Of a stretch of DNA of 64,000 bases, positions 2,844-54,014 are shown piece by piece. Position numbers and translations under genes: made by a program. Source of the DNA: Candidatus Omnitrophota bacterium (GTDB taxonomy: Bacteria; Omnitrophota; Gorgyraeia; JAZDFF01); contig JAZDFF010000042.1 of NCBI GenBank assembly GCA_043808095.1, positions 137,364 through 201,363 on the forward strand, read 5' to 3'. Within the stretch, counting starts at the first letter, position 1. Every line of letters starts with the position of its first letter. The notes under the pieces are model-generated. The model worked only from the letters and a program-made list of their open reading frames with translations, was not told the origin of the DNA and did not search any database.

Positions 2844-4085
2844 TTACTTTTGTTCGCTTTGTGTCAAGTATCTTAAATTTGCCATCAATAAACCAAGTAA
2901 TAACCAAAAAATCATTACAATCTGCAAGCTATAGAAATGGGTATCGAATGCGCTATGCACCAAATAAGCCAATAAGCCTCCCAATAAACCAACAGAAAGA
3001 TTTTTATAAACAGAATCTTCATGTTTTTTAATCAATTCTACTGACTTAATAAATAAGGTAAAAATCACGAACATAAAACTAGTCAACCCCAAGACGCCTG
3101 TTTCAGCAAGCATCTGCAGAAAACAATTATGGGCATAAGTAGGCCCCCAGGAATATTCAATTATATTGTTTAATCTTTCAAAATTGAACATAAACGTGCC
3201 TAATCCTACTCCCGTGAGAGGATTCTCAAGAAACATGCTTATCCCTATTCTATTTAGGACTACTCTGTCTTTTACCCCATTATCAGAAAAATTAAATAAG
3301 GCACCAAACCCGGCCTTCATATCCTGAGGATACAAAAACCAAATGCTCGCAAAAAATAAAATAACGAATAGTAAAATAAAGGCAGTCCGTTTTTCTTTAA
3401 ACAAAATAATAAATATGGCCCCGAGAATAAACCCCAACCATGCCCCGCGCGAAAACGACAAAAATAAACAGGTTAATAGACCCAGACTTAAAATCCTGAA
3501 GGCGATTCTTAAAATAAAATTTTTAAATTTATAAAAAATCAGGCTCAGGTTTATTATAAGAAGCGGCGATATGTATGCGGCAAAGTCATTTGCAGAAATA
3601 AAAGGCCCCATTATTCTAAAGGTAAAGGGCCGCGCATCATAGTACCAGACTCTGTTACGGATAAAATCCTTATGGGTACAAAACTGAAATAGGCCATCAA
3701 CGCAGATCAGGGCACTGGAAATAAATAAAATCGTTAAAATATTTCTTATTTTTTTCCTGGAGTTCATGCTTTCTATAATAACAAAAAATATCAAAACATA
3801 TTCAGCAAGCTTTAATATGAAAGTCCTGATGCTTATTGCGAAATTCGTACTAAATATTACTGAAATACCGCAAATTACTACATAAATCAATAAGGGTTTA
3901 TCTAAAAACGTATCAAAAGTAAATTTTCTAATTATTACCTTCTTAAGCAGAAACGCAAATATTGCAATAGTGGCGAAGATTTCTATTAAGGCATTGGATA
4001 TGGGTAAAAAATAGGCCAGAGAATATAACGAGTATTCCATTACTCTATCTAGTATAACTATACAATTCTGTTTATTTATCGACAT
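2844..4085 (-). CDS. O-antigen ligase/Wzy_C-family polytopic membrane protein (WaaL/Wzy-like polymerase or ligase)
   Basis: 413 aa with about 10-12 TM segments. The hallmark motif LSFSRGAWLGFILG (SRGAWL of the O-antigen ligase family) is followed by a periplasmic loop. Confidence 0.65.
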   Translation of the reverse strand: MSINKQNCIVILDRVMEYSLYSLAYFLPISNALIEIFATIAIFAFLLKKVIIRKFTFDTFLDKPLLIYVVICGISVIFSTNFAISIRTFILKLAEYVLIFFVIIESMNSRKKIRNILTILFISSALICVDGLFQFCTHKDFIRNRVWYYDARPFTFRIMGPFISANDFAAYISPLLIINLSLIFYKFKNFILRIAFRILSLGLLTCLFLSFSRGAWLGFILGAIFIILFKEKRTAFILLFVILFFASIWFLYPQDMKAGFGALFNFSDNGVKDRVVLNRIGISMFLENPLTGVGLGTFMFNFERLNNIIEYSWGPTYAHNCFLQMLAETGVLGLTSFMFVIFTLFIKSVELIKKHEDSVYKNLSVGLLGGLLAYLVHSAFDTHFYSLQIVMIFWLLLGLLMANLRYLTQSEQK

Positions 4086-5895
4086 CGCCTTCTTCCTTTA
4101 GGTCCAGAATGCCTGAAATCTTTCTATACGGAATATCGCAATATTCGCAAATTGTACTGAATTCAATAATTTCTTTTTTTCTATTGTGTGGCAGGGTAAT
4201 CAACAGTTCATCAATTTTATAATCTTTTATCAAATTGGCAACATCTTCCCGGGAGCCCAAAATTGGAATACCATGAATTCTTTTACCGGCCTTTTCCGTA
4301 TCGTCGTCAATAAAACCAACGGGATGGTAATTCACGGTCTTACTTCTCTTAATTTCTCTTAAGACCATTTCGCCGGTATTTCCGGCTCCTATTATTAGAA
4401 TCCGTTTTCCCTTGGTCCGGGCCGAGAAAAAGTATTCGTTTAAAATAGGCAGAATTACTCTAATACCGCAGACTAAAAATAATAAAATCAACCAATCAAT
4501 TATGAATATGACTCTCGAAAAATCTTTAAATCTGAAAATTAAAGTCAGCATAACTATGCCTAAGAGCGAACTTATAGTAACCGCCTTAAATATAGAGATT
4601 AAATCAGGAATACTAATATATTCCCTTACCCTGTTATATAATCCGAACTTAAAAAATGCCACCATTCTAATAACAATCATTATGGGCAGAGATTCCCTAA
4701 TCAGGAGAAATGCCGCCTCGGGGATCTTCGACTCATATTTAAGCAAATAGGCACAGTAGTACGAAATACAAATTAAAACAAGATCGAAGCTTACTTCTAA
4801 AAAAATGCGCTTATAAAGTAAAACAGTATTGAGAACGACTTTATTTTGCTTTAATTTCTTTTGTCTTGCAAATTCAATGTCTTCCTTGCTCTCATAAGTC
4901 TGGACATCGGACAAAAAAATCCCAAAGAAAAATAGGATAATGAACGTAAGGAGCATGAGTATAAAAACTATTATAAAGTCGATTTTGGTATACGTAAGTG
5001 CAATTAAGCCAAATAAAATACTGATAATATATAACAAAACTACTGCCCTTCTTTCAGGGAGACCTAACGAAACTATACGATGAGAAGTATGATCTCTGCC
5101 GCCTTGCCAAAAAGACCTGCCTCCGAATTTCCTCATCAGCATGACAAATATCGTATCAAAAATAGGAACTCCCAAAATTAAAACCGGTATTGACAAGGTA
5201 ATGATAAAATTCGAGACGTGCCTATAGGAACTCATAATACTTATTACGGCCAAACTGAATCCTAAAAACATACTCCCTGAATCTCCCATGTAAATTTTTG
5301 CAGGATTAAAATTGTAAGGCAAAAAACCCAGCGTCGCTGCGGCCAATATCAAACCCACCACGCCTATACCATCATTATTTAATAAGAGGGATGAGGCAAA
5401 AATCATCATCCCGGAGATTACGGCAATGCCGGCAGCTAAACCATCCATATTGTCCAGTAGATTAAACGAGTTAGTAATTCCGATAATCCAAAAAAAAGTT
5501 AAAAGATATGAAAAAAACTGGAATTTAGGTATATTGAAGGTAATGCCCAGAAGAATGACTATACAACTGGCAATAATCTGGCCCAGCAGTTTCATTTGAG
5601 GTCTCATTGGCTTGAAATCGTCACTTAAGCCCCAGGCAAAGATAAAACTCGAACCAAGCAATAATCCCCAGATCATTCTTTCCGTTTTAAAAAACAACAC
5701 TATCCCAATTATCGAAGATAGATAGATTCCTATGCCGCCCAGTAACGCCGTAACTCTTCTGTGCCAGCGATCTTGCTTTGGCTTAGCAACAAGTTTGTAC
5801 CTTATGGCCAAAGACCGGACCACCGGAGTAAAAATTAGAGATAGGCCAAAAGGAAGCAAAAATATTGGTAAGTACTGTAAATATTCTAAATACAT
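4072..5895 (-). CDS. WecA/MraY-family polyprenyl-phosphate HexNAc-1-phosphate transferase fused to a C-terminal TM + Rossmann (WbaP/PglF N-terminal-like, CoA-binding-like) module
   Basis: 607 aa. The N-terminal roughly 330 aa carry NSFNLLDNMDGLAAGIAV and YMGDSGSMFLGFSLA (MraY/WecA signatures). The C-terminus has 3-4 TM segments followed by ILIIGAGNTGEMVLREI..YHPVGFIDDD..IHGIPILG, typical of the N-terminal regulatory domain of WbaP/PglF/CapD proteins. Confidence 0.7.
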   Translation of the reverse strand: MYLEYLQYLPIFLLPFGLSLIFTPVVRSLAIRYKLVAKPKQDRWHRRVTALLGGIGIYLSSIIGIVLFFKTERMIWGLLLGSSFIFAWGLSDDFKPMRPQMKLLGQIIASCIVILLGITFNIPKFQFFSYLLTFFWIIGITNSFNLLDNMDGLAAGIAVISGMMIFASSLLLNNDGIGVVGLILAAATLGFLPYNFNPAKIYMGDSGSMFLGFSLAVISIMSSYRHVSNFIITLSIPVLILGVPIFDTIFVMLMRKFGGRSFWQGGRDHTSHRIVSLGLPERRAVVLLYIISILFGLIALTYTKIDFIIVFILMLLTFIILFFFGIFLSDVQTYESKEDIEFARQKKLKQNKVVLNTVLLYKRIFLEVSFDLVLICISYYCAYLLKYESKIPEAAFLLIRESLPIMIVIRMVAFFKFGLYNRVREYISIPDLISIFKAVTISSLLGIVMLTLIFRFKDFSRVIFIIDWLILLFLVCGIRVILPILNEYFFSARTKGKRILIIGAGNTGEMVLREIKRSKTVNYHPVGFIDDDTEKAGKRIHGIPILGSREDVANLIKDYKIDELLITLPHNRKKEIIEFSTICEYCDIPYRKISGILDLKEEGDVDK

Positions 5896-5896
5896 T

Positions 5897-6865
5897 TTAT
5901 AATATATTTTTATAATAAGTAATAACGTCTTTAATAATGCTATTTAAATCTGCTGTCGGCTTGAAACCGATTAACCGATTAATCTTAGTTATATCGGGAA
6001 CCCTACGCTGCATATCCTCGAAACCTTCCTCGTAAGCCTCATCATAAGGAATGAACTTAATCTCTGAGCTACTGCCCGTAATGTCGATAATCCTTTTAGC
6101 TAAATCTCTTATCGATATTTCTTCCTGACTGCCAAGGTTAAAAACTTCGCCTACTGCCTTTGGATTATTGACTAATTTGATCAAGGCTGATACTACGTCT
6201 TTTACATGTAAAAAACAGCGCGTTTGCTTGCCGTCTCCATAAATGGTTAAAGGATCATTGTTTAAGGCCTGAGTTATAAAACGTGGTATAACCATCCCAT
6301 AAGCTGCTGACTGTCTGGGACCAACAGTATTAAAAAGCCTGACAATTATTGAAGGAAGATTATTTTGTTTCCAGTAAATATAAGCAAGCATTTCATCGAC
6401 TGCTTTTGCTGTAGAATACCCCCATCTGCTTTTTAGGGGAGAACCTAATATCCGGTCATCTCCTTCCTTTAATGGACCATTCGTATTCTTGCCATAAATT
6501 TCCGAAGTAGAAGTAATCAATATCTTTTTATTATATCGACAGGCTATCTCTAAAACTACCTCACTCCCCTTTATATTAGTTGTGAGTGACTGTAACGGTT
6601 TTTTTACAATTAACTCGACACCCACTGCGGCAGCAAGATGAAACACGACATCTACTTTTTCTACCAATTTATCTACTAATGCTGTATCAAGAATGCTTCC
6701 TCTGACTAACTCAAGGTTTTTATTATTCTCAAACTGCTTAATATTTTCGAGCCTTCCTGTCGAAAAATCATCCAAAACAACCACCTGGTTTTTGTGATCT
6801 TTTAGCAGTTCTTCCGCTAAATGCGAACCAATAAATCCTGCTCCTCCTGTGACTAATACCCTCAT
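5897..6865 (-). CDS. Extended-SDR NDP-sugar dehydratase/decarboxylase, UDP-glucuronate decarboxylase (UXS)-like
   Basis: 322 aa with VLVTGGAGFIGSHL, ILITSTSEIYG, a YSTAK catalytic YxxxK and FNTVGPRQ, which match UXS/ArnA-type motifs. Confidence 0.65.
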   Translation of the reverse strand: MRVLVTGGAGFIGSHLAEELLKDHKNQVVVLDDFSTGRLENIKQFENNKNLELVRGSILDTALVDKLVEKVDVVFHLAAAVGVELIVKKPLQSLTTNIKGSEVVLEIACRYNKKILITSTSEIYGKNTNGPLKEGDDRILGSPLKSRWGYSTAKAVDEMLAYIYWKQNNLPSIIVRLFNTVGPRQSAAYGMVIPRFITQALNNDPLTIYGDGKQTRCFLHVKDVVSALIKLVNNPKAVGEVFNLGSQEEISIRDLAKRIIDITGSSSEIKFIPYDEAYEEGFEDMQRRVPDITKINRLIGFKPTADLNSIIKDVITYYKNIL

Positions 6866-8055
6866 TTTATCTCCTTTTCAGCTAACAAATCTCCATATAA
6901 CCGTTCCATATCTTCAATTAATCTCTCTTTTCTAAATCTGTCTCTAACAAAGCCCCTGCCTGCTTCTCCTATCTTTATCCTTAAATCTTTGTTCTTCATT
7001 AAATTAATCAAAGACTTGGTAAATGCCTCGGCATCCTTAGAGCTTACCAATATGTTTTCAGGAGGCAGGCCGGCTAATTGACAAACTGGATTAATTAAAT
7101 CCCTCACCCCGCCAACGTCTGTCGCCACAACTGCGCAACCGGCTGCCATCGCCTCTATTAATGAAACTGGATTACCCTCGTTTAAAGAGGTTAAGGCCAC
7201 AATATCCAAATTAGAATATAAATTTACCAGATCCTTCTGCCAACCCGTAAAGGTAACATAATTATTTAAACCTAATTCTTGAGCATAGCTTTCCAGAGTG
7301 TTTTTTAACTCTCCGTCGCCAACAATAATAAACTGACGATCGCCGATAACAGAGGAATGATTGCTCAGAATCAGTTTTACTGTTTCAAGAAACATAGCGT
7401 GATTTTTTATCTTCGTAAGCCGGCCCACAATTCCTATTTTAGGCCCAGAGTTTCTTTCTATAGGAATGGATAAAAGCTGATCAAGTTCTAGGCCTAAATG
7501 TATTACTATTAATTTATCAGGACTGCCTATCCCTAATTCTAACAACTCCTTTTTAACTGTCTGGCTTACAGCAATAATCTTATCCGTAAATTGAGCTAGA
7601 ATTCTCTCAATACAAATAAATACCCTGGTTTTAAATCTCCCAAAATAACTATGTAAAACATGTCCATGGAAGGTATGTATTAGGATACATCTTTTCTTGC
7701 CAACAATCAAATTATATAACAGTCCTGCAAGCCTTCCTAATGTCCCGGCCTTTGCCGTATGGGTGTGAATTATATCGGGTTTCTCCCTCAAAATTAAAAG
7801 AAAAAGTCTTAAAAAAGTACGTAAGTCATTTATAAAGCTGATGTTACGGGATAAGGCAGGAATAATTATCGGTACTACATTTTTACTCTTAGCAAGATAT
7901 ATCATATCGGCCTCATGGGAATCCACACTACCAGTAGCCAAAAGTGAGTGAAATCTATTTTTATTTAGCCCGTGCGTAAGCAGGATGCAATGAATTGCCG
8001 GACCGCCTATGTTAAGTCTTGCAATTATTCTTAAAATTTTTACCTTTTTATCCAT
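6862..8055 (-). CDS. GT4-family glycosyltransferase (GT-B fold)
   Basis: 397 aa. EGNPVSLIEAMAAGCAVVATDVGGVRDLI is the canonical GT4 C-terminal motif. Confidence 0.85.
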   Translation of the reverse strand: MDKKVKILRIIARLNIGGPAIHCILLTHGLNKNRFHSLLATGSVDSHEADMIYLAKSKNVVPIIIPALSRNISFINDLRTFLRLFLLILREKPDIIHTHTAKAGTLGRLAGLLYNLIVGKKRCILIHTFHGHVLHSYFGRFKTRVFICIERILAQFTDKIIAVSQTVKKELLELGIGSPDKLIVIHLGLELDQLLSIPIERNSGPKIGIVGRLTKIKNHAMFLETVKLILSNHSSVIGDRQFIIVGDGELKNTLESYAQELGLNNYVTFTGWQKDLVNLYSNLDIVALTSLNEGNPVSLIEAMAAGCAVVATDVGGVRDLINPVCQLAGLPPENILVSSKDAEAFTKSLINLMKNKDLRIKIGEAGRGFVRDRFRKERLIEDMERLYGDLLAEKEIK

Positions 8056-8591
8056 TTCAGGGATAAACTATTTCTAACAATATCCTGCCAGGTTGCCTTA
8101 CAAAAGAACCCAATAAAGCAAAACAATAAAGATGACCCCAAAAGCATCCATCTTAAGAGGCTAATTTCTTTATGAAAACCAACTGACATCAGCATATCAG
8201 TAATTATTGCAGTAATAATAATTATGCTCCCCGTCCTAATCGGAATAGAGCTAAAATTTTCCTCCAATAGTTTTATTGAATTAATTATTTTACTTGTACC
8301 AAACAAAATAGCTACTTCTGTCTTTAGCATGCTAGAAGATTTTTTACAATATCGAATAATACGACTATTATTAAAATATACCGTGCTCTTACAGTTAAAC
8401 CGCGCGGATTTCTTAATGACACTAAATACATAAGAATCCTTTGGTGGATTTTTTAAAAAATTTATTAGGCTATAGAGATGACCGCTTTCGAAGCTGGCCT
8501 CTATTTTTAGATCTATTTGGCGGCATACCTTTAAGGCATGCATTATCAGCAATACGACAGAACTTGTATTGATTAAGTCTCTGATTCTCAT
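8040..8591 (-). CDS. hypothetical protein with C-terminal TM segment
   Basis: 183 aa with no recognisable motif. It sits in the operon with the same codon bias, and its start is uncertain. Confidence 0.35.
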   Translation of the reverse strand: MRIRDLINTSSVVLLIMHALKVCRQIDLKIEASFESGHLYSLINFLKNPPKDSYVFSVIKKSARFNCKSTVYFNNSRIIRYCKKSSSMLKTEVAILFGTSKIINSIKLLEENFSSIPIRTGSIIIITAIITDMLMSVGFHKEISLLRWMLLGSSLLFCFIGFFCKATWQDIVRNSLSLKWIKR

Positions 8592-8615: not shown

Positions 8616-9821
8616 TCATGGCTCTACCCCTACAATTATGCCCGAAATACTATACATATCCGTAGAAAATGTAATAGGATTGCCTATTTTCACAGGGAAA
8701 TTTTTAAAAAAAGTTATTTCGTCTTTCTCCGCACAAAACGTTTTCATAGAAACTACTATCTCCTTTAAGAATGGATGGTTAACCATAACTAAATTGTTTT
8801 CTTTAAAAGTTAGCATCTCGGATTGTTTAGAACTTATAACTGCATCGATTTTTGCCACTACTTGGCCAGAGAGGTCTTTTTCAACATCTCCTTCATGTAT
8901 AATATCTGCAATTTCGGGAATTATTTCAAAAAATCTGACCTTCAACTTCAGCCATCTTGTTTTAGTTTGATAAATAGAACTGAAGGCTCCGGAAGCTAAA
9001 AAAACAGATTTATATTTATCAGTATTAAATTCAATCGGAAAATTATATGTCAATTTACGGTCCTTATAGAAAATTTGACTGTTTTCATCCGTTTTGCATT
9101 TTAATCTTACTTTTACAAAAATCTGTTTTCTGTTAGGGTCTACCCCTTGTAGAAAATTTCCACTACCCAAATCAATATTAACAATATTATTTTCTAATTC
9201 GCCGACATTTAAAATTTCGGCTATAACTTGTCCGTTCTCATCTACTTCCTTATCTCCTACTAGAACCAATTTTGCAGTATCGTTGTTTAATTCTTTAATC
9301 GATCCATAAAGATCTATTAGCGATTCCTCTATATTCTTAAGCCCGCGGATTGCCTTAACCGAATATTTTTCTGTTGCAAAATCAAAAATAGAATTAAGCG
9401 CTATAGGACTATATTTATAATACAAACCATCCGGACGAACTCCCACTATTAATTTAAGCCTGGCAGAAATTTGCTTTAAATTTTTATCAGTTTTTAAAAA
9501 TTCTTCCTTAGGGCCTACTTTGATTTTATATTCATAAGGACCTACCTCCCCAAGGCTGATTATTTCTCCGATAACCTCTCCGCTTTCATTTAATTCTTTA
9601 TCCCCGACCGAAATTAACTTTGCAATTTGAGGCTCTAATTTTATGAACTGGCAATCGAAAACTTCTTCAATAAAATCTTTTTTAGAAAATTTTGGTTTTG
9701 CAGAAAATAATCTATAGCCGAAATAAAACATCGTTATAAAACAAATCAAAGATACAATTATTAAAAAATCGATTATGTTTAGCTTTCCAAACAGTCTGCC
9801 ATTTTCATCTATTATTTTCAA
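8616..9821 (-). CDS. membrane-anchored protein with three tandem copies of a roughly 40-aa acidic repeat (function unknown)
   Basis: 401 aa with an N-terminal TM anchor (IIDFLIIVSLICFITMFYFGY). The repeats are AKLISVGDKELNESGEVIGEIISLGEV, AKLVLVGDKEVDENGQVIAEILNVGEL and ADIIHEGDVEKDLSGQVVAKIDAVIS. Confidence 0.5.
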   Translation of the reverse strand: MKIIDENGRLFGKLNIIDFLIIVSLICFITMFYFGYRLFSAKPKFSKKDFIEEVFDCQFIKLEPQIAKLISVGDKELNESGEVIGEIISLGEVGPYEYKIKVGPKEEFLKTDKNLKQISARLKLIVGVRPDGLYYKYSPIALNSIFDFATEKYSVKAIRGLKNIEESLIDLYGSIKELNNDTAKLVLVGDKEVDENGQVIAEILNVGELENNIVNIDLGSGNFLQGVDPNRKQIFVKVRLKCKTDENSQIFYKDRKLTYNFPIEFNTDKYKSVFLASGAFSSIYQTKTRWLKLKVRFFEIIPEIADIIHEGDVEKDLSGQVVAKIDAVISSKQSEMLTFKENNLVMVNHPFLKEIVVSMKTFCAEKDEITFFKNFPVKIGNPITFSTDMYSISGIIVGVEP

Positions 9822-10870: not shown

Positions 10871-12121
10871 TTATATTATTTTTTTCAAAAAATCTGCGAA
10901 AGCTAAAATACCGTTTGCAGCGAAAATCAAAATAAAAGATTCAACAATCCATCGATGCCTACCGTCTAAATTGAACGATGCATGGACCAATGTCATAGTA
11001 ATTAAAAATAATATTATTAGTGTAACCGGGTAAATATCGTTTAAATTAACGTAAGCATGCCTGATTTTTTTATAAAGCCCGATTAGAAAAAACAACAATA
11101 TAAATATCCAATAAAATTTATAAATATAAAGATACGTTTTAGGATACTCCATCCCCTGCGTAGGAGTAAACCACCAAAAATATTTTATTTTTTTAAAAAA
11201 TAGACTTAGCGACCTGATGGGATGTTTTTTAATAAAATCCCTGCCCTCCTCATAGAAATATTTTTTTTGCCCGAATTCATCCATACTTAAAATTTTATAA
11301 CGGAATTGTTCGGGCGCAACATCGAAAATAAACCTATCGCCTAAAGTCTTGTTCGTACCCGTTGCATTGTCATTATAACCTAACCAAAAGGCAAGTCCGG
11401 ATTCGGTAGGTGTTAATACGATTTTATTGAAAACAAGATAATTTCTTATCCATAATGGGAACAATGTCAGTGTTATAAATACAGTTATTAATAAAACGGC
11501 TCTGTAAAATAAGACCGGGCTTACTTTGTACCTCATGAAAAATATTAGAAACACAATGGGTAAAAATAATCCGATCGCAGTGCGGGAAAGTAAAGCTAAC
11601 CCAAAAATTATTCCGCATAAAATTGAAGTTCGGTAAATATTTTTACCGTCTAAAATTTTCAAGAAAAGAAAAATTGATAAAGCATATAGAAATGTATCTA
11701 AAACTAAGGAATGCAGTCTCACTGAATAGTAAACCAAGCCTGGATGCAGGCTTACTAAAAATAGAGATAAAATAGCGATTTTCTGATTAAAGATCCTTAG
11801 CGCAATTCTGTATACCAATAAACAGGTTAAAAGAGATATAATTATCTGCAATATTTTTAAGGCAAGGAAACTATGATTGGTAAAAAAATATACCAAGGCG
11901 CATAAAAGAGGATACAAAACGATATAAGTAGCCCGATAGGGTATGCCGTAAAAATTATAATACAATCCATTGCCTTTAAGTAAATTATTTGCTATCTCTT
12001 CGTACTCCCAGGTATTAGGATGAGAAATCGGTTCCACAAAAAATAAAGCCGATAATCTTGCCATTATTGCCAGAAGAAAAACACTCATAACTAATATTCT
12101 ATTATTATTCTTTAGGTTCAT
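10871..12121 (-). CDS. GT-C fold glycosyltransferase, GT39/PMT_2 (ArnT-like) family
   Basis: 416 aa and polytopic. WEYEEIANNL is an acidic first-loop motif, and the YPLLCALVYFF..SFLALKI..LHPGLVYYS pattern resembles PMT_2/ArnT. Confidence 0.65.
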   Translation of the reverse strand: MNLKNNNRILVMSVFLLAIMARLSALFFVEPISHPNTWEYEEIANNLLKGNGLYYNFYGIPYRATYIVLYPLLCALVYFFTNHSFLALKILQIIISLLTCLLVYRIALRIFNQKIAILSLFLVSLHPGLVYYSVRLHSLVLDTFLYALSIFLFLKILDGKNIYRTSILCGIIFGLALLSRTAIGLFLPIVFLIFFMRYKVSPVLFYRAVLLITVFITLTLFPLWIRNYLVFNKIVLTPTESGLAFWLGYNDNATGTNKTLGDRFIFDVAPEQFRYKILSMDEFGQKKYFYEEGRDFIKKHPIRSLSLFFKKIKYFWWFTPTQGMEYPKTYLYIYKFYWIFILLFFLIGLYKKIRHAYVNLNDIYPVTLIILFLITMTLVHASFNLDGRHRWIVESFILIFAANGILAFADFLKKII

Positions 12122-12931: not shown

Positions 12932-13244
12932 CCCATCTATATCCGCACTCCACGGATACTCCTGACATTTTTTTGTCTTTTTCGTCTATAGGAAATATCT
13001 TGCAGAAAAAAGGCTGTTTATTGTATATCTGGCACTTACCATCCTTTAAATAAATACACCAAGGTTTATTCAAAAGACAGCAACGTCCACAAGCAGAACA
13101 ATTACCTTTGCGCTTGAGTAATGAATTTATTGTATAACGAGGGCGGAAATAAACAAGCCAGCGGTGTCGCATTCCGGAAAGTATAATGGTAAAGAAACCA
13201 GTCCTCTTCATACCCATCTCTTTATGCCAGATTATATATAGCAA
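12909..13244 (-). CDS. small cysteine-cluster protein, YkgJ-like CxxCxxCC (putative Zn/Fe-S binding)
   Basis: About 100 aa. It has an exact CSACGRCC (CxxCxxCC) motif plus further Cys residues, and overlaps the 3' end of rSAM1 and the 5' end of the GT2 gene. Confidence 0.45.
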   Translation of the reverse strand: MLYIIWHKEMGMKRTGFFTIILSGMRHRWLVYFRPRYTINSLLKRKGNCSACGRCCLLNKPWCIYLKDGKCQIYNKQPFFCKIFPIDEKDKKMSGVSVECGYRWDGDEKRK

Positions 13245-14643
13245 AAAAACCTTTTATTTGACCTTGTAACTCTGTAAGCGACCTTATGGATGCAAGCCTT
13301 CTCAAGATATAGGAAGGCCGAAGATAAAATTTTTTGTTGGCAAAATCTAAAAATTCTTTAAATTCATCTTTGGTCAAGGCTTCGGGAACAAACATTATTG
13401 CAGAATGGTCCAAGATACTGCTTTGGCTGAAATCAAATTTATAGCCATCTTTTTTAAGCATCCCGTACAGCTCAGTGCCTGGAAAAGGAACAAATTTATT
13501 AAAATGCGCATAATCGACTTTAACCCTTATTGCAAAATCCAGAGTGCGCCTCAGGCTTTCCAAAGTCTCGCCGGGAGTACCCACAATAAAATCCGCCCTT
13601 ACGCTAAGGCCGGCATTATGGGCTAGCCTCACAGCCATCTCATTTTGTTTAACCGTATTTCCTTTATTTAATAATTTAAGCATCCTATCATCGCCAGACT
13701 CTAAGCCGAAAAGGACTTGCCAGCATCCGGCTTCTTTCATCGCCTTAAACATATCTAGAGAAATATTGGTTACCTTAGTCAGACATGTCCAGGAAACTCT
13801 CAGCCTTCTCTCTTTAATTTTTGCACATAGCTCTAATACCCTTTTATGATTTAAGGTAAAGGTGTCGTCAAAAAATCTAAGTTCTTTTGCGCCAAATTTG
13901 TAAACCAATTCTTCCATCTCATCAATAACATTGCCCGCGCTGCGCTCTCTATAGGTACTGCCGAATACGCCCCGGTCGCAAAAAGTACATTTTGACGGAC
14001 AGCCTCTTGTAGTTATTAGAACGCCCAGAGGTAACTTTCTATAAGAAGCGGGCGTAGGCCGGTAGGTTGACAAAGGAGGCAACAGATGTCTTGCCGGAAA
14101 TGGTAATGTATCTAAATCTTTAATATGTTCTCTGGGGTTCGTTTTAATAATCTGCCCGTTTTTTCTGTATACAATGCCGTTGATATCATCGAGATCGGAG
14201 GTCCTTTTATCTTCCACCCTTTTCAATAATTCCAGTAAAGTCACTTCTCCTTCTCCTATAACCCCAATATCAAAACAGGGAAATTGCATAGTCTCAATCG
14301 GCATAGCGCTAAGATGTGCTCCGCCTATAATAATAGTAGTGTCCGGCAAATGTTTTTTAATATCTTCGGCACAATTTTTCATGCTCTCAAAAGCTACGGT
14401 AGTGCCGGTAAGGCCCACCACATCAGGCTTATCTTTAATTAACGTATTTATTAATTCTTTTTCCGATATCCCTATACTGCAATCGATTATCCTAACCTCA
14501 TAACCCTGCTTTTTTAAAACTGCCCCTAAATAAGCAAGGCCGAGGGCTGGTATGACATTAACTACAGATTTCATGCTTCTTGTATTACCAACCAAACAAC
14601 CGGTTGAAACAGGGGGATCTATTAAACAAATCTTTAGACTCAT
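13222..14643 (-). CDS. B12-binding domain radical SAM protein (class B rSAM) paralog 1
   Basis: 473 aa. The N-terminal Rossmann B12 domain (VVGLTGTT, IIIGGAHLSAMP), the rSAM motif TRGCPSKCTFCD and the C-terminal FVPFPGTELY motif are all present. Confidence 0.85.
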   Translation of the reverse strand: MSLKICLIDPPVSTGCLVGNTRSMKSVVNVIPALGLAYLGAVLKKQGYEVRIIDCSIGISEKELINTLIKDKPDVVGLTGTTVAFESMKNCAEDIKKHLPDTTIIIGGAHLSAMPIETMQFPCFDIGVIGEGEVTLLELLKRVEDKRTSDLDDINGIVYRKNGQIIKTNPREHIKDLDTLPFPARHLLPPLSTYRPTPASYRKLPLGVLITTRGCPSKCTFCDRGVFGSTYRERSAGNVIDEMEELVYKFGAKELRFFDDTFTLNHKRVLELCAKIKERRLRVSWTCLTKVTNISLDMFKAMKEAGCWQVLFGLESGDDRMLKLLNKGNTVKQNEMAVRLAHNAGLSVRADFIVGTPGETLESLRRTLDFAIRVKVDYAHFNKFVPFPGTELYGMLKKDGYKFDFSQSSILDHSAIMFVPEALTKDEFKEFLDFANKKFYLRPSYILRRLASIRSLTELQGQIKGFFAIYNLA

Positions 14644-14654
14644 AGAATATGCCT

Positions 14655-16526
14655 TTATAGATAACCTTTAAAGTAATAATAAGCTATGCTTATATACTCA
14701 TGGATTATAGCCTTGATCTGCTGGAGATTTATCTGCCTTAAAATCCTTGCGCCTCTGTTATCATATCCATCATGGGCATAAAAAGCACTCTGCGTTACAG
14801 GGGTAAATATTACCTTAATTTCTGGGGCGATTTTCTTAAACACCAAAGATGCCCGTCTCATATGATAAGGGGAACTCACCAAAAGAACTTTTCGCCAGTT
14901 ATTTTCACTGGACCTCTGTTTCAAGAAGCGGACATACTCAAAGGTATTAGCACCTCTTTCCTCCAATGAGATCGCTTTTTTGGGTATCCCTAAAGAAACC
15001 GCCAGGGTCTCCATAATATAGGGCTCCTTGTAGAAGTAGGAGAAACCCGAAACAAATATAAGATTATTCGCATAGCCGTATTTATAAAGCCTGACGCCGC
15101 GGTCAACTCTCTCCTCATATCCCTGGCCAGCCTTTCCTAATTCACCTACGCCTCCGGCAAAAACAACAATACAATCAGATTTTTCCGGCTCCTGGGATAT
15201 TTTCAAGGGGCTAGCTATAAACCAAAACAAAGGAGTATAAAATAACAATATATAAATACCTAAAACTATCGAGGTCAATCTAATCGTCTTTCTTCTTGCA
15301 GATTTATAAAATTTAATGAACCTCTCTTGCCAATTGGCGGGACCAGAAGTCTTCCGCTCAAGCTCCTGCATTAATAAATAGTCCATCTTCTCAAATCTTG
15401 CAGTCCAACTATTTATTTTAGCCGAAGCAATACGCTGATTGCTCAATTCTTTGCTATTGTTCTTAAGAGCATTCAAAATGTTAGTAACAAATTGTTCATG
15501 TGTCTTGCCGACCAAAACCAAATTATCATTTTCGGCATTAAAATTAGCCACCTCAGGCAAATCCGTAGAGACAGCTACTTTTCCCATAGCGTGGTACTCG
15601 TTTAACTTAGTCGGGAATACCGTTGTTGTATATTTGCTATTTTCATAAGGTATAATACAGACATCAAATTCGTTTATATAGCTCGGTAGACTCAAGAAGT
15701 CTTTCTTACCTAAAAGGAATACGTTCTTAAGGTCTTTTATCCTTGAAACATCAGTCTGGATAGGCCCAATTAAAACTATAGACCACTGAGGCTGAGTTTC
15801 TGCGATAAATCTTATCAATCTGAAATCAATGTGCCGATGTATTCCGCCGATATACCCAATTATAGGCTTTTTGATGGCTATTAAATCTTGCGGAGATTCC
15901 GAAGGATTATTTCTAAAATTTTCGAAAGTTTCAAACTTTACTCCGAAAGGGAAAATATAAACATTGCCATTGAGTCTTTGGCATTTGTTTTTCAAAAACT
16001 CTCCTTGTACGAATATTAAATCGCTTTTACTAATCAGCTCATTCTCGGACCTCTCCGCTTTTTTGGGGCTGTCTACCAATTCATTGAAGTCGGCTATACA
16101 ATAATAAACCAAGAATTTTCTATCTACGCTATTAATAATGTCTAGCGCCGTACCGGTAGGCAAAAATGTCCAGACAATCGGTTCGTGAAATTCCATAGCC
16201 TTCATCCATCTTCTTATCGGAACAATTAACATATATTTATTAATCCAACGCGCAATCTTTGAGTAAGGAAAAGGTAAAATGATAGGAGAATAAACATAAA
16301 GATCCTCCCTTTCCAATCTAAAGCCTTTGATACTTTTAAACCAATTGCTAACCCTTTTTCGCAATCTGTAAATGTCTCTTAAATTAGGAACGCGTATACC
16401 GGTATTTTCAATAAATAAGACTCTATTGCCGTTCTTGGCAAAAGTAGACATTATCTCCTGATGCCCCTGCCAGACAAAATCCCAATCGATGGAAGATATG
16501 CAGATAATGTTTTGGTTTTTAAGCAT
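14655..16526 (-). CDS. GT-B (GT4-like) glycosyltransferase fused through a TM segment to a C-terminal DUF218 (YdcF/ElyC-like) domain
   Basis: 623 aa. The N-terminus (IICISSIDWDFVWQGHQEIM..NRVLFIEN) is GT4-like, a TM helix follows (LTSIVLGIYILLFYTPLFWFIA), and the C-terminus carries CIVVFAGGV..LIFVSG..GANTFEYVRF..VSSPYHMRRA, which are DUF218 hallmarks. Confidence 0.6.
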   Translation of the reverse strand: MLKNQNIICISSIDWDFVWQGHQEIMSTFAKNGNRVLFIENTGIRVPNLRDIYRLRKRVSNWFKSIKGFRLEREDLYVYSPIILPFPYSKIARWINKYMLIVPIRRWMKAMEFHEPIVWTFLPTGTALDIINSVDRKFLVYYCIADFNELVDSPKKAERSENELISKSDLIFVQGEFLKNKCQRLNGNVYIFPFGVKFETFENFRNNPSESPQDLIAIKKPIIGYIGGIHRHIDFRLIRFIAETQPQWSIVLIGPIQTDVSRIKDLKNVFLLGKKDFLSLPSYINEFDVCIIPYENSKYTTTVFPTKLNEYHAMGKVAVSTDLPEVANFNAENDNLVLVGKTHEQFVTNILNALKNNSKELSNQRIASAKINSWTARFEKMDYLLMQELERKTSGPANWQERFIKFYKSARRKTIRLTSIVLGIYILLFYTPLFWFIASPLKISQEPEKSDCIVVFAGGVGELGKAGQGYEERVDRGVRLYKYGYANNLIFVSGFSYFYKEPYIMETLAVSLGIPKKAISLEERGANTFEYVRFLKQRSSENNWRKVLLVSSPYHMRRASLVFKKIAPEIKVIFTPVTQSAFYAHDGYDNRGARILRQINLQQIKAIIHEYISIAYYYFKGYL

Positions 16527-16562: not shown

Positions 16563-18095
16563 TTACTCGTATACATATCTTGACTTTATCCTTAATAATT
16601 CCGCCAAGCGTTCAATTCTTTTCCTTATAATAGGGGGTAAATATAATGACAGCACATGTCCGGCCATTAGAAAAAATTGACGTATGGCATACATCGGCCT
16701 GTTCTTTATATTTGCCTTTATCTTGAAAAGGTAATTGGTCGGGAGCACTAATGTCCTATCCAGAATCAAGCGTAGGTGATCAAAGCGCGAATAAGGTATA
16801 TCTGCAAAAGTAATATCTCCAAGTACAGCTTGATCATATAAATCATCCCAATCATCATAATTTTTAATCCGCCCTTCGCTAATAAGCTGTTTATAAAAAA
16901 GCGTCCCGGGCAAAGGATAAAACTTGTGTCTAGTTATCCAATCGGGTCTAGTATTTTTTAAAAATTTTATTGAGTCAATAAAATCTTGCTCCCTCTCATG
17001 AGGAGTCCCCAAGATAAGATTGGCCGTACAGGAAATACCGAATTTTTTTGTCAATTTAATTGCCTTAAGACCGTCTTCTACCGTAGCGTTTTTATTCATC
17101 CTGAGTAATACGTCAGGCGAACCTGATTCTATTCCATATATTACATTGATACATCCGGACTCCTTAAGGACATTAAGAATATCTTCGTCTACCGTATCTG
17201 CCCTCAAGCTTACTTCATAAACTATTTTTTTATTTATTTTGCTTCTAATTAACATGTTGCATATTCCAAGAGTACGGTTTTTTTCAACTGCAAAAACAGG
17301 ATCATCAAAAAAAAGCGCTTTTATTTTATAATTTTCTATAAGATGCTGGATTTCTGCCTCGACATAATCGATACTATGCTGCCTTACGTATCTGCCTGAA
17401 TTCCAATTTCGCGATATCGAATTCTGGCAGAAGGAACACGGATTAGGGCATCCCCTTTGGGTATAAATAGTAGTCCCCGATAATAAGTTTCCCTTAATGG
17501 TTGTAGAACTTGGAGCAAAATAAAAATCGGCATTTAATAAATCCCTGGCAGGAAAAGGTAACTTATTTAAATCTTGTATTAGGGCCCTTTTTTCATTTAT
17601 TATAGTTCTTCCGCCATCATCAAAAGAAATACCTTTGATATCTCTTAAAGGATACCCCTCCACAAATTCCAACATGGTGTTCTCGCCCTCGCCGATACAA
17701 ATAGCATCGATCTCTTTGCATTGCTTAAACGACGAATACGGTTCTGCGCTTGGATGAGGCCCGCCAAGAATAATTTTTATTTTTTCGTCAAATTCCTTTA
17801 TCAACCTTGTGCATCTGTATGCATCCATAATCTGAGGAGTAGTAGCGGTAATCCCCACGAAATCAGGACTAAAATTCTCTACGTATCCATAAAGATGTTT
17901 ATCCGCAAACAAAATACTTTCCGCTGTCCTTGCTTGAAAACCAACGGCAAATTTTCTCTCATATAACTTGACTTCATGACCGAATTCTCTTAGATAAGAG
18001 GCTATGTATAGTAGGCCACAGGGAGGCTGTTTGGCAATTATATCGTTTTCCCATTGGCTATTTTGACTTAGTGGATTTATTAATAAAACTTTCAT
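16563..18095 (-). CDS. B12-binding domain radical SAM protein (class B rSAM) paralog 2
   Basis: 510 aa with FVGITATT, IILGGPHPSAEP, QRGCPNPCSFCQ and FYPLPGTLFY. Confidence 0.85.
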   Translation of the reverse strand: MKVLLINPLSQNSQWENDIIAKQPPCGLLYIASYLREFGHEVKLYERKFAVGFQARTAESILFADKHLYGYVENFSPDFVGITATTPQIMDAYRCTRLIKEFDEKIKIILGGPHPSAEPYSSFKQCKEIDAICIGEGENTMLEFVEGYPLRDIKGISFDDGGRTIINEKRALIQDLNKLPFPARDLLNADFYFAPSSTTIKGNLLSGTTIYTQRGCPNPCSFCQNSISRNWNSGRYVRQHSIDYVEAEIQHLIENYKIKALFFDDPVFAVEKNRTLGICNMLIRSKINKKIVYEVSLRADTVDEDILNVLKESGCINVIYGIESGSPDVLLRMNKNATVEDGLKAIKLTKKFGISCTANLILGTPHEREQDFIDSIKFLKNTRPDWITRHKFYPLPGTLFYKQLISEGRIKNYDDWDDLYDQAVLGDITFADIPYSRFDHLRLILDRTLVLPTNYLFKIKANIKNRPMYAIRQFFLMAGHVLSLYLPPIIRKRIERLAELLRIKSRYVYE

Positions 18096-21688: not shown

Positions 21689-23194
21689 TTATATCCTATA
21701 AAATAACTCCACACGTATATACATCCATTTCAAACGGATACGCCGAATGATTGACTTAATAGTTTTATAGACAAGGAGTAAAACAGTAAAAAAGATTATA
21801 GACACCAGACGTATCCATTTTTGATTGCATAAAGACTGGTTAAGTTGCTGACAAAACAAAGAAAAGTCTCTCAGGTTAAACCCAAACCCAAATTGCGTTA
21901 CTTTGAAATATGTTATATCACGATAATTCGCGTAGGAAAGTAAGCGGTCTATATAAGAACGCATAAAAAATAGTTTCGAGATTTTTTCTAAGTCGGTTCG
22001 TTTCAATTCAGGATTTTCATATACAGGAACATCGACCTCTGTACAAAAACCTCTTTTCCATATTCCTTTTTCAAGCCAATTGAAGTTTAGGGGCAATACA
22101 CCATTCTGGATTGCATAGGTATATAACTGTGTTCCTGGAAAAATGTCTGTGGGTTTAAAAGAAACAAGGTCAGCCCGTAGTTCCAACGCAAATCGATAGG
22201 TTTCTTCCAATGTTTGTAGCGTTTCAGTAGGATGACCCAGCATAAAAAGGGTTACTATCTGCTCAAAGCCACATTTTCGTGCAAGTTGTATTGCCTGCTT
22301 AACATCATCTCGATTGATATTCTTATGAATATATGCAAGTATCCGTTCATTACCTGACTCCACGCCAAAGGATATTTTATAGCAGCCAGCCTTACGCATC
22401 ATCTTAAAAACCTCGCTATCGACATGATCAACCCGACCCTGACACTCCCAGCGTATCTTTAATTTGCGCCGTAAAATTTCTTCGCATACGGCAAGAACCC
22501 ATTTCTTGTTTCCGGTAAAATAATCATCCCGAAAACGAATTGTTTTTTTTCCATAATCCTTGGTTAAATGCTCCGCCCAATCAACAAGCCGTTGAGGTAG
22601 AATATACCGAATTTTTTTCTGCCAAAACGCAGGGCTGTTACAGAATATACATCCTTCCCAGCATCCCCTCGTCCCCATCAAGGCATATTCGGGATACTCT
22701 GCTATCGGTAACAGATGCCACGCTGGTTCGGGTAGAATATTAATATCTTGAAGCAAGGGACGGGTTGGGTTTAAGACTATATTGCCATTCTTACGGTAGG
22801 CGATACCGGAAATATCTTCAAGGTTCTTCTTCTTTTCAAGATATTGCAGAAGTTCACCCATAGTAATTTCCCCTTCTCCTACGACCGCCACATCAAAGGC
22901 GGAAATGCCTCGTAGGGTTTCTTGGGCAGTAAAGGTTATATGCGGACCTCCTGCGACAACAAAAGCACTTAATGATTTAGCAATCCTGGCAATTTCAAAT
23001 GCCACGTGGCGGTTGGCGGTTAAAAAGGATATGCCAACCATATCCGGACTTTTTTTCTCAAGGAGTGCACGGATATACGACATATCAACCGCAAGCATAT
23101 CAAAATCATAGAGTGTTACGTCCACCTTATTGGAGGAGATAAAAGAGGCGATATGCGCAAGACCTAAAGATGGCTCGCATGTAGCACACTCCAT
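21689..23194 (-). CDS. B12-binding domain radical SAM protein (class B rSAM) paralog 3, with C-terminal TM helix
   Basis: 501 aa with MVGISFLTA, VVAGGPHITFTA, TRGCWEGCIFCN and DIFPGTQLY. The C-terminal IRLVSIIFFTVLLLVY is hydrophobic. Confidence 0.8.
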   Translation of the reverse strand: MECATCEPSLGLAHIASFISSNKVDVTLYDFDMLAVDMSYIRALLEKKSPDMVGISFLTANRHVAFEIARIAKSLSAFVVAGGPHITFTAQETLRGISAFDVAVVGEGEITMGELLQYLEKKKNLEDISGIAYRKNGNIVLNPTRPLLQDINILPEPAWHLLPIAEYPEYALMGTRGCWEGCIFCNSPAFWQKKIRYILPQRLVDWAEHLTKDYGKKTIRFRDDYFTGNKKWVLAVCEEILRRKLKIRWECQGRVDHVDSEVFKMMRKAGCYKISFGVESGNERILAYIHKNINRDDVKQAIQLARKCGFEQIVTLFMLGHPTETLQTLEETYRFALELRADLVSFKPTDIFPGTQLYTYAIQNGVLPLNFNWLEKGIWKRGFCTEVDVPVYENPELKRTDLEKISKLFFMRSYIDRLLSYANYRDITYFKVTQFGFGFNLRDFSLFCQQLNQSLCNQKWIRLVSIIFFTVLLLVYKTIKSIIRRIRLKWMYIRVELFYRI

Positions 23195-29119: not shown

Positions 29120-30340
29120 CTAAGATACAGCCTTTGTTTCGGATAACCTTTGGTAGATATCCCGATATTTCTTCTGACCGATGCCTAAGGAAAGATGGTC
29201 CTCCGCTACTTTTCTACAGCGTAGTCTCAAGTCGCCTATACTACTTTGAAGTTCTAATATCTCATCGACTGCTTTTATGTAGCTGGCGGCTTTAAATTCG
29301 TCAATAACTGCTCCTATTCCATTTCTACTCACCAATTCTGCCGTATCTCCGATTCCGGAGTTAATAATAACCGGCAGTCCACAGGCCAGGCTTTCTCCAA
29401 GCTTTATAGGTATGGACCCCTGTTTAGAAAATGACGGCTTTATAAAGAATACCGAAAAATCTCCGATTGATAACCAACGCGGCATTTCTTCGTGAGGTGC
29501 GCTGATTACAGAAAATTCGTCTTTATCAACTCCTTTATTAAACATCAAATTATCAATAACAGATTTTCTAAAGAGCGTAAAAAATAGAAAATGCGCATTA
29601 ATAATTTTTGCTTTAGCGATTTTAAAGAAATCAACCATTTCATCCAGCATATACCAAGTACCCAAGGAGCCTGAATATATAAAAATAGTCTTATTCCCTA
29701 ACCGCAAAGACTCCACCAAATCCTGCGGCTTACCTGCTATTTTGAATTTATTTACATCAACACAGGCAGGAATTACATCTATAGCCACCTTATGCCCCTT
29801 CATATATTCAAAATCCTCCACTATCGTTTTCAATTTTTCGGTGAGGACTATTATTGCATCGGCATTGAGAAGTAATCTTTTTTCAAATGCCTTGGTAACC
29901 TTATATAAAAAACCGCCGCGAGGCCATGTATTTGCATCTACCTTTTCATCGGGCCATATACCTCTCATGTCAAAAATTAATTTAATTTTTAATAATTTTT
30001 TTAAAACTAGAGCAATTGCTGCCGCAACATAACTCCTGGCATGGATTACGTCTACCTTATTTCTCATGACTAGAAATGTACTTACCAATACGCCTTGCAT
30101 TATGTCATATAATGTTGCCGGAAGCGTTGGTTTTTTATGGTATCTTAGACTTATACATTCTATCCGCTCGTTTTTCAAACCCAGCATGATTTTTTTTATC
30201 TCATCGGTGCGACCTCTCTTATCAAAAGTTAAAAGCGTAAAAATAATTCCATCTTCCGATAATCCTTTTAAGTAAGGAATTACTTGAGATTGCACCAGCG
30301 CTTCCTTTAGCCCATCATAAGATATATATAGAGACCTCAT
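29120..30340 (-). CDS. GT4-family glycosyltransferase
   Basis: 406 aa with KLGESLACGLPVIINSGIGDTAELV. Confidence 0.75.
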   Translation of the reverse strand: MRSLYISYDGLKEALVQSQVIPYLKGLSEDGIIFTLLTFDKRGRTDEIKKIMLGLKNERIECISLRYHKKPTLPATLYDIMQGVLVSTFLVMRNKVDVIHARSYVAAAIALVLKKLLKIKLIFDMRGIWPDEKVDANTWPRGGFLYKVTKAFEKRLLLNADAIIVLTEKLKTIVEDFEYMKGHKVAIDVIPACVDVNKFKIAGKPQDLVESLRLGNKTIFIYSGSLGTWYMLDEMVDFFKIAKAKIINAHFLFFTLFRKSVIDNLMFNKGVDKDEFSVISAPHEEMPRWLSIGDFSVFFIKPSFSKQGSIPIKLGESLACGLPVIINSGIGDTAELVSRNGIGAVIDEFKAASYIKAVDEILELQSSIGDLRLRCRKVAEDHLSLGIGQKKYRDIYQRLSETKAVS

Positions 30341-53207: not shown

Positions 53208-54014
53208 TTAGTTATCCCTTAAGCCTTTTTGTTTGACATCTTTGTTTATCCGGTGAATCCAAAGCTCTTTTTCCAGAAGATTTGAGATATTTTCAATTGA
53301 GAAATTGTTTATTTTCTTATATAACCTTTTATAGACCTGCCTGGTAAATTGTAAATCCTGCCTGGTATCTACTGTCAGGCGCAGCCCGGAGAGGTCTCTA
53401 GAATATTTAACATTGCCTAATCGAAAGAGGTCCGGATGTTCATAGATATAGGCAGTAACATGTTCTCTCTGATAGGCCTTATCTGCCGCCTTCCAGCATC
53501 TTTGAAGTGCCTGCATAGTAAAAACCTCAACCCCTAATCCGACCGGGTAAGACGGAATCAAAAAATTACTCACGTAATCCAGGGTTTTTTTATGTTTAAA
53601 GTAGTAGCGAATAACTCTATCAACAATTCTTGCGCTTAAAAAAGGACAATCTGAGCAAATCCTGACGACAACATCTAGTTTATTTTTCTTTGCTGCCTGA
53701 TAATATCTATCAAGGACGTCATTCTCGCTGCCGATAAAGGTCTTTACCTTACAACCTGCTGCCAGTTTCAAAATAGGCAAATCCGCTTTTTTAGCAGTAG
53801 TTGCGATAATTATCTCAAATGAAAACTGCGACTTTTTTAAACGCTCTATCAAATACCACAACATTGGTTTACCTAAAATATGCTTCAAAACTTTCCCTGG
53901 TAAACGAGTAGAACCCATCCTTGCTTGCACAATAACGCCAATTTTCATATTTAACAGGTGTACTATTTTATATAATCCACGAATAAACTCCGATAATTTA
54001 TAAACTTTATCCAA
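53208..54014 (-). CDS. acylneuraminate cytidylyltransferase-family CMP-nonulosonic acid synthetase (NeuA/PseF-like); true start probably the internal ATG near 53948
   Basis: MKIGVIVQARMGSTRLPGKVLK is the canonical CTP_transf_3 N-terminus. The track ORF starts at a TTG 22 codons upstream. Confidence 0.8.
   Translation of the reverse strand: MDKVYKLSEFIRGLYKIVHLLNMKIGVIVQARMGSTRLPGKVLKHILGKPMLWYLIERLKKSQFSFEIIIATTAKKADLPILKLAAGCKVKTFIGSENDVLDRYYQAAKKNKLDVVVRICSDCPFLSARIVDRVIRYYFKHKKTLDYVSNFLIPSYPVGLGVEVFTMQALQRCWKAADKAYQREHVTAYIYEHPDLFRLGNVKYSRDLSGLRLTVDTRQDLQFTRQVYKRLYKKINNFSIENISNLLEKELWIHRINKDVKQKGLRDN

Follow-up and report, generated by a model that had tools for sequence, protein, structure and literature searches.

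The window analysed here, a stretch of 64 kb from a Candidatus Omnitrophota bacterium, contains on its minus strand a gene (4072..5895) in which a polytopic phosphoglycosyl transferase (PGT) of the WecA/MraY type is fused to an accessory module consisting of four transmembrane helices and a Rossmann-like domain (the 4TM + Rossmann module). The gene has an ATG start and 607 codons with no internal stops, and the encoded protein of 607 amino acids (aa) and 15 predicted transmembrane helices is 100 % identical to V1674_07590, a protein from a metagenome-assembled genome (MAG) of Candidatus Omnitrophota bacterium at NCBI. The original prediction, made from the DNA letters before the present analysis, described a single gene and quoted several motifs, without naming the strand. 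The open reading frame (ORF) is uninterrupted and all of the motifs are found where they had been placed: ITNSFNLLDNMDGLAAG at residues 141-157 and GDSGS at residues 204-208, and further towards the C-terminus IIGAGNTGEMV (residues 501-511), YHPVGFIDDD (residues 523-532) and GIPILG (residues 542-547).

Residues 1-329 (4909..5895, minus strand) form the WecA/MraY-type polytopic PGT domain, as had been proposed for residues 1 to about 330, based on the Pfam family PF00953, the AlphaFold2 model, Foldseek and invariant residues. Glycos_transf_4 (PF00953) matches residues 76-222 with E=2.2e-35 and 122.5 bits (cut-off 27), the NCBIfam WecA model TIGR02380 covers residues 16-324, TIGR00445 matches partially, and a sequence search against solved structures also gives MraY chains for this part. 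The equivalog cut-off of TIGR02380 was missed (102.7 bits compared to the 326 needed). Because the score is far below this cut-off, the protein was not filed as WecA and its sugar specificity was left unassigned. In 48 homologues D92, N142, N145, D148, N149, D151, G152, L153, D205, H269 and H272 are invariant, and D93 is at least 90 % conserved. The catalytic motif set of these transferases is intact, i.e. the DD pair D92/D93, NxxNxxDxxDGL, the aspartate of GDxGS (G204-D205-S-G-S) and the histidine loop with H269 and H272. Eleven transmembrane helices are predicted, with the N-terminus outside and the C-terminus inside (AlphaFold2, hydropathy and the positive-inside rule), and the loops rich in lysine and arginine, as well as the catalytic motifs, are predicted to be cytoplasmic (AlphaFold2, hydropathy). 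The helix number, the model and the Foldseek results agree with the MraY/GPT fold of 10-11 helices, the N-terminal part matching MraY and human DPAGT1 with E-values down to 1.5e-10 and target-normalised TM-scores of 0.6-0.78.

The transferase is followed by a charged cytoplasmic linker (residues 330-352; 4840..4908, minus strand) with six K/R and five D/E residues and a low pLDDT (predicted local distance difference test) score. The four-helix bundle of the module then covers residues 353-490 (4426..4839, minus strand), with helices at residues 353-386, 393-416, 429-454 and 461-490 in the AlphaFold2 model, and is also recognised by the N-terminal halves of TIGR03023 and TIGR03025 and by Foldseek. 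The cytoplasmic Rossmann-like domain at residues 491-599 (4099..4425, minus strand) has five beta strands and three helices (AlphaFold2) and is related to PF13727, PglD_N, CoA_binding, Rex and PDB entry 3nkl. PF13727 (CoA_binding_3) matches residues 418-581 with E=8.1e-18 and 65.5 bits (cut-off 25), and weaker Pfam matches to PglD_N, CoA_binding and GFO_IDH_MocA lie at residues 495-578. From NCBIfam, the WcaJ/EPS sugar-transferase models TIGR03023 and TIGR03025 match residues 370-593 with only their profile positions 2-221 of about 450, and there are weak matches to the N-domains of the NeuD/PglB type and to Rex. When the module was modelled separately (pLDDT 85), the top PDB match in Foldseek was WbaP (8t53_A, E=1.2e-6); the WbpM-type N-domain 3nkl was matched with 29 % identity and a target-normalised TM-score of 0.68, and Rex repressors were also found. 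The C-terminal part had been predicted to be the transmembrane and Rossmann module known from WbaP and PglF, to be abandoned if profiles showed it to be unrelated; the PF13727 score, the four-helix bundle and the Rossmann-like domain all speak for the relationship. The position of the module is not the usual one, N-terminal to a Bac_transf or Polysacc_synt_2 domain: here it is C-terminal to PF00953 and nothing comes after it. No Bac_transf domain was found in the protein with Pfam or with TIGR03023/TIGR03025, of which only the N-terminal half matched, and there is no Polysacc_synt_2 dehydratase domain with STDK...MGxxK, the protein ending at the position of the inter-domain linker.

The AlphaFold2 model of the full protein has a pLDDT of 78. 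With 11 + 4 helices, the catalytic loops and the Rossmann-like domain would both be cytoplasmic (AlphaFold2, hydropathy). The odd number of helices in the transferase part allows the module both to start and to end in the cytoplasm, as described for WbaP. The module is not decaying, and in close homologues its conservation comes near to that of the catalytic domain: mean pairwise identities in 48 of these are 0.59 for the PGT, 0.22 for the linker, 0.59 for the four-helix bundle and 0.54 for the Rossmann-like domain, and the corresponding values over 133 clusters at 50 % identity are 0.40, 0.16, 0.29 and 0.32. Nearly invariant in the fusions are G503-A-G505-x-x-G508-E509, G527-F-x-D530-D531 and K535. 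The GAGxxGE, GFxDD and K positions are conserved also in the modules of stand-alone dehydratases, and are degenerate in WcaJ. The classical fingerprint of (di)nucleotide binding is a glycine-rich loop with acidic residues about 22 positions further on, where strand 2 ends. The role of PglD_N and of the NeuD N-domain is UDP binding, and the matches to them suggest, at the level of sequence, that the module binds a UDP-sugar.

The architecture is not restricted to the window and recurs in several phyla, most of them uncultured. The 120 best database homologues are 49-70 % identical to the protein, all approximately 600 aa long and all with both Pfam domains. An exhaustive search was made over 1.84 billion cluster representatives (clusters at 50 % identity), from which the best 150 matches were taken. 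Nearly all of these have 570-660 aa and give a single alignment over query residues ~10-590, down to 31 % identity. Both domain hidden Markov models (HMMs) built here matched 155 of the 157 proteins tested, the short ones resembling contig-end fragments. The search for other proteins with Glycos_transf_4 followed by CoA_binding_3, suggested along with the original prediction, thus resulted in at least 130 clusters at 50 % identity. In addition, one genome per GTDB species was scanned with a 10-sequence alignment of the module and the ORFs at the 80 best loci were classed with our own HMMs. Of these loci, 43 carry the PGT + module fusion, in Omnitrophota (including MAGs labelled Planctomycetia), Nitrospinota, Acidobacteriota (Pyrinomonadaceae, Blastocatellia and Chloracidobacterium) and one MAG labelled Deltaproteobacteria. 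The module together with a short-chain dehydrogenase/reductase (SDR) domain, as a stand-alone protein, was found at 36 loci, in Nitrospirota, Thermodesulfobacteriota, Zixiibacteriota, Gemmatimonadaceae, Myxococcota and others, and a frameshifted gene of the same kind at one locus (L063, uncultured delta proteobacterium MAG). Large monotopic PGTs were found at none. The fusions and cassettes of seven MAGs named 'uncultured Planctomycetia bacterium' (L001, L004, L005, L010, L013, L015 and L019) have their closest counterparts in Omnitrophota, and the automated taxonomic labels of these MAGs may therefore be wrong. At L016 (4940-6849, fusion gene) and L063 (3727-5882, PglF-like gene) the gene is broken up over two or three frames, probably due to sequencing frameshifts and not because these are real pseudogenes.

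The fusion gene is the third gene of a four-gene cassette on the minus strand, in the order GT4, UXS-like SDR, fusion, Wzy_C protein. A stand-alone extended SDR (5897..6865) lies directly upstream with a gap of 1 nucleotide (nt) to the fusion start. It had been predicted to be UXS-like, and among solved structures human UDP-glucuronate decarboxylase UXS1 comes closest to it (202 bits), with STSEIYG, Y..K and GPR retained. Upstream of it is a group 1 glycosyltransferase (GT4; 6862..8055), also a conserved member of the cassette, and downstream a membrane protein of the O-antigen ligase/polymerase-like Wzy_C type (2844..4085), the start of which overlaps the end of the fusion gene by 14 nt. Among the 38 fusion loci having upstream sequence, a homologue of the SDR (~250-520 bits) was present within 2.4 kb upstream in 34 and within 150 nt in 25, and in most of them a GT4 homologue (~290-420 bits) adjoins the SDR. 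The Wzy_C gene follows the fusion in Omnitrophota and comes one gene further on in Acidobacteriota. The cassette of GT4, SDR, fusion and Wzy_C is conserved across these phyla.

The module is nearest to those of membrane dehydratases of the PglF/WbpM/CapD type, not to those of WbaP/WcaJ-type transferases. No WbaP-type transferase was present among the 80 closest modules in the species-representative genomes. In BLASTP against a stand-alone PglF-like protein encoded in a complete Thermodesulfobacteriota genome, residues 349-599 align to its N-terminal part with 33 % identity (E=1e-45), and the alignment halts exactly at the linker into the SDR domain. E. coli WcaJ gave no significant BLASTP match to the module (E=3.4) and was not detected by the module HMM, and the mean distance of the fusion modules is 2.94 to WcaJ compared to 1.62 to the modules of stand-alone dehydratases. 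The best 25 plasmid matches listed for the module lie in genes for 'NDP-sugar epimerase/dehydratase' or 'polysaccharide biosynthesis protein', with one exception that falls where nothing is annotated; the O-antigen dehydratase of S. sonnei pSS_046 is among them, with 26 % identity to the module. The original prediction had seen domain shuffling between the two priming-enzyme architectures. That the module was joined to another enzyme holds; the donor, judging from the 80 nearest modules and BLASTP, was instead most likely a dehydratase.

Further evidence comes from rare, longer relatives. Six cluster representatives are 928-1110 aa long, and in four of these (P0122, P0123, P0128 and P0175) the PGT and the module are followed by a Polysacc_synt_2 domain (Pfam). 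P0140 has a weaker, degenerate tail of the same family. The best solved relative of the P0122 tail, the one tail searched, is C. jejuni PglF (E ~1e-37). These tri-domain relatives are 35-44 % identical to the fusion over ~560-600 residues and their SDR domains are 330-400 aa long. In an SDR alignment with PglF, the STDKAV...MGxxKR signature is retained in 35 of 36 stand-alone relatives and lost in all five tri-domain fusions, where IEK..F, TSK..A..RR, SIK..L..RR, DEK..I or a deletion is found in its place. No stand-alone SDR gene lies upstream in any of the four tri-domain loci examined, and in three of the four the GT4 gene is directly upstream. In the weakly supported module tree four tri-domain forms group together, nested among the two-module fusions, and P0175 is placed elsewhere. 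P0175 (also P0271 and P0272; locus L086, 5001-8333) is an 1110-aa protein with a PGT, four transmembrane helices, two tandem Rossmann-like domains and a degenerate PglF-type SDR domain. In P0161, a 928-aa protein of a SAR324 cluster MAG (MBF0289938.1), the PGT and module are followed by a 330-aa tail that, judged by eye, looks like TPR-type helical repeats; Pfam gave nothing for it at E≤1e-5, and it does not resemble the SDR tails.

Unfused counterparts of the cassette exist. A P. aeruginosa match from the plasmid collection has the order GT4, SDR, PF00953-type PGT (345 aa) and membrane dehydratase (665 aa). The genes that come after it (comEA-like, aminotransferase and uvrB) lead us to take it for the end of an O-antigen cluster, and the SDR, PGT and dehydratase presumably occupy the WbpK, WbpL and WbpM positions, the record having generic product names. 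These genes are collinear with GT4, SDR and PGT::module of the window and each pair is detectably homologous, with identities of 27 % (E=2e-21) for GT4, 22 % (E=7e-11) for the SDR, 28 % (E=5e-14) for the PGT and 27 % (E=6e-17) for the module. Orthology between the window SDR and the SDR in the WbpK position was considered and is unsupported, with only 22 % identity and the window SDR being UXS-like. The A. baumannii KL12 locus has the order fnr1-itrB3-gdr, where ItrB3 is a PF00953 PGT (PMC4487303). Among the stand-alone loci, L058 and L071 have an unfused WecA-type PGT gene 51-85 nt upstream of the module + SDR gene. A polytopic WecA-type PGT had been expected also upstream of the WbgZ-type dehydratase of S. 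sonnei; the record of pSS_046 shows a 197-aa 'sugar transferase' just upstream, which from its size we take to be a small monotopic PGT. The S. sonnei locus therefore backs the adjacency of PGT and dehydratase genes generally and not the polytopic case. Because of these examples from P. aeruginosa, A. baumannii, L058/L071 and S. sonnei, we regard the adjacency as general, and joining two such adjacent genes would yield the fusion.

It is probable, although far from certain, that the protein combines an active polytopic PGT with a module derived from a dehydratase, the SDR domain of which first decayed and was then lost, and that the module has a regulatory or dimerising function. The adjacent genes of a PGT and a membrane dehydratase, arranged as in the P. 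aeruginosa and A. baumannii clusters, would have become fused, after which selection on the SDR domain may have relaxed, its catalytic residues been lost and the domain, but not the module, repeatedly dropped from most lineages. From its sequence, the fusion protein is a member of the MraY/WecA/WbpL superfamily and would act in the inner membrane as a polyprenyl-phosphate : UDP-HexNAc-type sugar-1-phosphate transferase. No other initiating transferase was found among the ORFs scanned in the 64-kb window, and for this reason it most likely primes the lipid-linked glycan of the surrounding gene island, presumably with a UDP-HexNAc-type donor. By analogy with WbaP, the cytoplasmic module is probably a dimerisation or nucleotide-sensing regulatory unit and may tune the committed priming step in response to uridine nucleotides or dinucleotides. 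In WbaP the corresponding domain of unknown function (DUF) makes most of the homodimer interface and is stabilised by uridine nucleotides and UDP-sugars, and UMP inhibits the enzyme with an inhibition profile that suggests a second site (PMC10942596). In Myxococcus EpsZ an activating response regulator docks onto the DUF (PMC12802240).

Several observations weigh against this interpretation. The tri-domain forms occur in at least two places of the tree, among the two-module forms, and could instead have arisen when a dehydratase gene recombined with the fusion gene within the module that both share. NAD(H) would suit the GxGxxG and acidic fingerprint and the Rex-like fold no less than uridine nucleotides would. 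The beta-hairpin that provides most of the dimer contact in WbaP is absent in the AlphaFold2 models of the fusion, which ends after beta5, and because of this any dimerisation by the module must differ from that of WbaP. One-to-one orthology of the cassette genes with those of P. aeruginosa is not established, since the SDR is UXS-like and shares only 22 % identity. The sample of stand-alone modules is biased towards those with the two peptide patterns scanned for. Finally, the neighbour-joining tree of the modules (capped distances) is poorly supported, with 34 % bootstrap for the stand-alone clade and an unreliable root on WcaJ; because of the weak support and the too distant outgroup, the direction of evolution was not rested on it.

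Other explanations were compared with the origin from a PGT and a dehydratase. That a sequencing frameshift or mis-assembly joined two genes is practically impossible and was ruled out, as the same continuous ORF recurs across hundreds of independent assemblies, and the frameshift-like splits at L016 and L063 (long-read assemblies) divide genes and do not join them. It is improbable that the module was instead passed from a large monotopic PGT of the WbaP/CpsE type onto a WecA-type enzyme. TIGR03023 and TIGR03025 match residues 370-593 at ~90 bits and WbaP 8t53_A is the top Foldseek match, which speaks for such a donor, but the 80 nearest modules, the WcaJ searches and the distances given above all point the other way, as does the degenerate GAGxxGE motif of WcaJ, and the tri-domain relatives bear an SDR domain of the PglF type and not Bac_transf.

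As regards function, the module could serve as a membrane dock, acting in trans, for the adjacent soluble UXS-like SDR, in place of the covalently attached SDR domain of PglF-type proteins, so that the PGT and a nucleotide-sugar-modifying enzyme would be held side by side in a metabolon or channel. The close spacing of the SDR gene at the fusion loci, being only 1 nt in the window, would agree with this, as would the complementary pattern of the tri-domain loci, which have no upstream SDR. However, the stand-alone SDR belongs to the UXS/ArnA-like subfamily and is not of the PglF type, the SDR domains of the tri-domain proteins appear, from their residues, to be catalytically dead and would not provide the same activity, and we know of no polytopic PGT that uses the likely SDR product, UDP-xylose or a UDP-4-keto-pentose, as donor. 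We therefore consider a docking function unlikely. The module might also be a functionless remnant of a dead dehydratase fusion which is tolerated on an active PGT, and the degenerate SDR domains of the tri-domain relatives do show that part of a fused protein can decay. Against this, the four-helix bundle (0.59) and the Rossmann-like domain (0.54) are conserved at the level of the PGT (0.59) and only the linker is not (0.22), the architecture persists across phyla down to ~31 % identity, and the nucleotide-binding fingerprint is nearly invariant. A remnant is thus very improbable, and an active PGT with a retained, functional module from a dehydratase remains the interpretation we prefer.

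A single glycan island on the minus strand takes up all 64 kb of the window, with two Wzx flippases, many GT1, GT2 and GT4 enzymes and genes for dTDP-sugars and nonulosonic acids. No PglF-like dehydratase and no Bac_transf protein were found among the ORFs scanned in the window, the fusion being the only initiating transferase among them. Two genes upstream of the cassette, a 183-aa ORF without a Pfam match (8040-8591) and a DUF4330 protein (8616-9821), recur weakly upstream in some Omnitrophota loci, the former in L001 and L002 and the latter in L002. The island contains nine B12-binding radical-SAM paralogues, an unusually high number, at 13222-14643, 16563-18095, 21689-23194, 38078-39502, 45286-46794, 50226-51650, 54080-55627, 56839-58257 and 59846-61276, which may be sugar C-methylases or other modifying enzymes. 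A 513-aa fusion of NeuB, SAF and GNAT acetyltransferase domains (51665-53206) lies beside a CMP-sugar cytidylyltransferase (53208-54014), and the pair resembles a branch for nonulosonic acids whose N-acetyltransferase is fused. Four PMT_2/GT-C membrane glycosyltransferases (10871-12121, 30340-31734, 36786-38081 and 58266-59849) share the island with three DegT aminotransferases and the UXS/ArnA-like SDR, a set reminiscent of Arn-type transfer of lipid-linked sugars. Other large ORFs encode a 623-aa protein with a GT1-type domain and a C-terminal DUF218 (14655-16526), a 710-aa protein without a Pfam match (43129-45261) and a 637-aa protein in which only the C-terminal third weakly matches Epimerase_2, Glyphos_transf and Capsule_synth (46821-48734). 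All of these genes are on the minus strand.

Every part of the fusion protein belongs to a known family and no new chemistry is implied. No description of a protein with PF00953 and PF13727, or of a polytopic PGT bearing the module, was found in the open-access literature, and in the databases these proteins are labelled 'hypothetical' or 'UDP-GlcNAc:undecaprenyl-phosphate GlcNAc-1-phosphate transferase'. With the fusion, the module occurs on three unrelated chassis, i.e. monotopic PGTs, SDR dehydratases and polytopic PGTs, and a four-gene cassette common to Omnitrophota and Acidobacteriota (GT4, UXS-like SDR, fused PGT and Wzy_C) is defined. The presence of the module on PglF-like dehydratases was termed 'puzzling' in the 2024 paper on the structure of WbaP (PMC10942596). 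We tentatively suggest, as a possibility short of an even chance, that the 4TM + Rossmann module is autonomous and works whatever catalytic domain it accompanies. A third, mechanistically unrelated host and lineages that discarded the dehydratase argue that it acts on its own, in regulation, dimerisation or docking. If so, the module would link the initial membrane steps of UDP-sugar pathways to a common signal, such as the level of uridine nucleotides or NAD(H), or to a common partner, and the polytopic PGT fusions would be a natural experiment in which the dehydratase was deleted and the module, having its own function, stayed under selection. Polytopic PGTs with and without the module provide a clean test system for its function.

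Among known systems, the membrane-bound UDP-GlcNAc 4,6-dehydratases PglF, WbpM, CapD, Gdr and WbgZ (4TM + PF13727 + PF02719) have the GAGxxGE, GFxDD and K motifs in common with the fusion module, and the protein in the WbpM position of P. aeruginosa is 27 % identical to it. In these dehydratases the module is N-terminal to the SDR domain, whereas in the fusion it is C-terminal to the PGT and the SDR domain is missing altogether; in the tri-domain relatives that domain is present, with the catalytic T-D-K replaced by IEK, TSK, SIK or DEK, or deleted. The large monotopic PGTs WbaP, WcaJ, CpsE and EpsZ (4TM + PF13727 + Bac_transf) have an accessory module of the same kind and are the sole host in which its role has been studied. 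However, their catalytic domain belongs to the unrelated monotopic superfamily and is placed after the module, the similarity of WcaJ to the fusion module is not significant, the glycine-rich motif of WcaJ is degenerate, and the WbaP hairpin is absent from the fusion. The polytopic PGTs of the WecA, WbpL and ItrB type share with residues 1-329 the Pfam family, the fold, the 11 transmembrane helices and the catalytic motifs, E. coli WecA being 27 % and the PGT in the WbpL position of P. aeruginosa 28 % identical to the domain. The compared enzymes end after their last transmembrane helix (367 aa in E. coli WecA and 345 aa in the P. aeruginosa PGT), whereas the fusion protein runs on for ~270 residues into the 4TM + Rossmann module.

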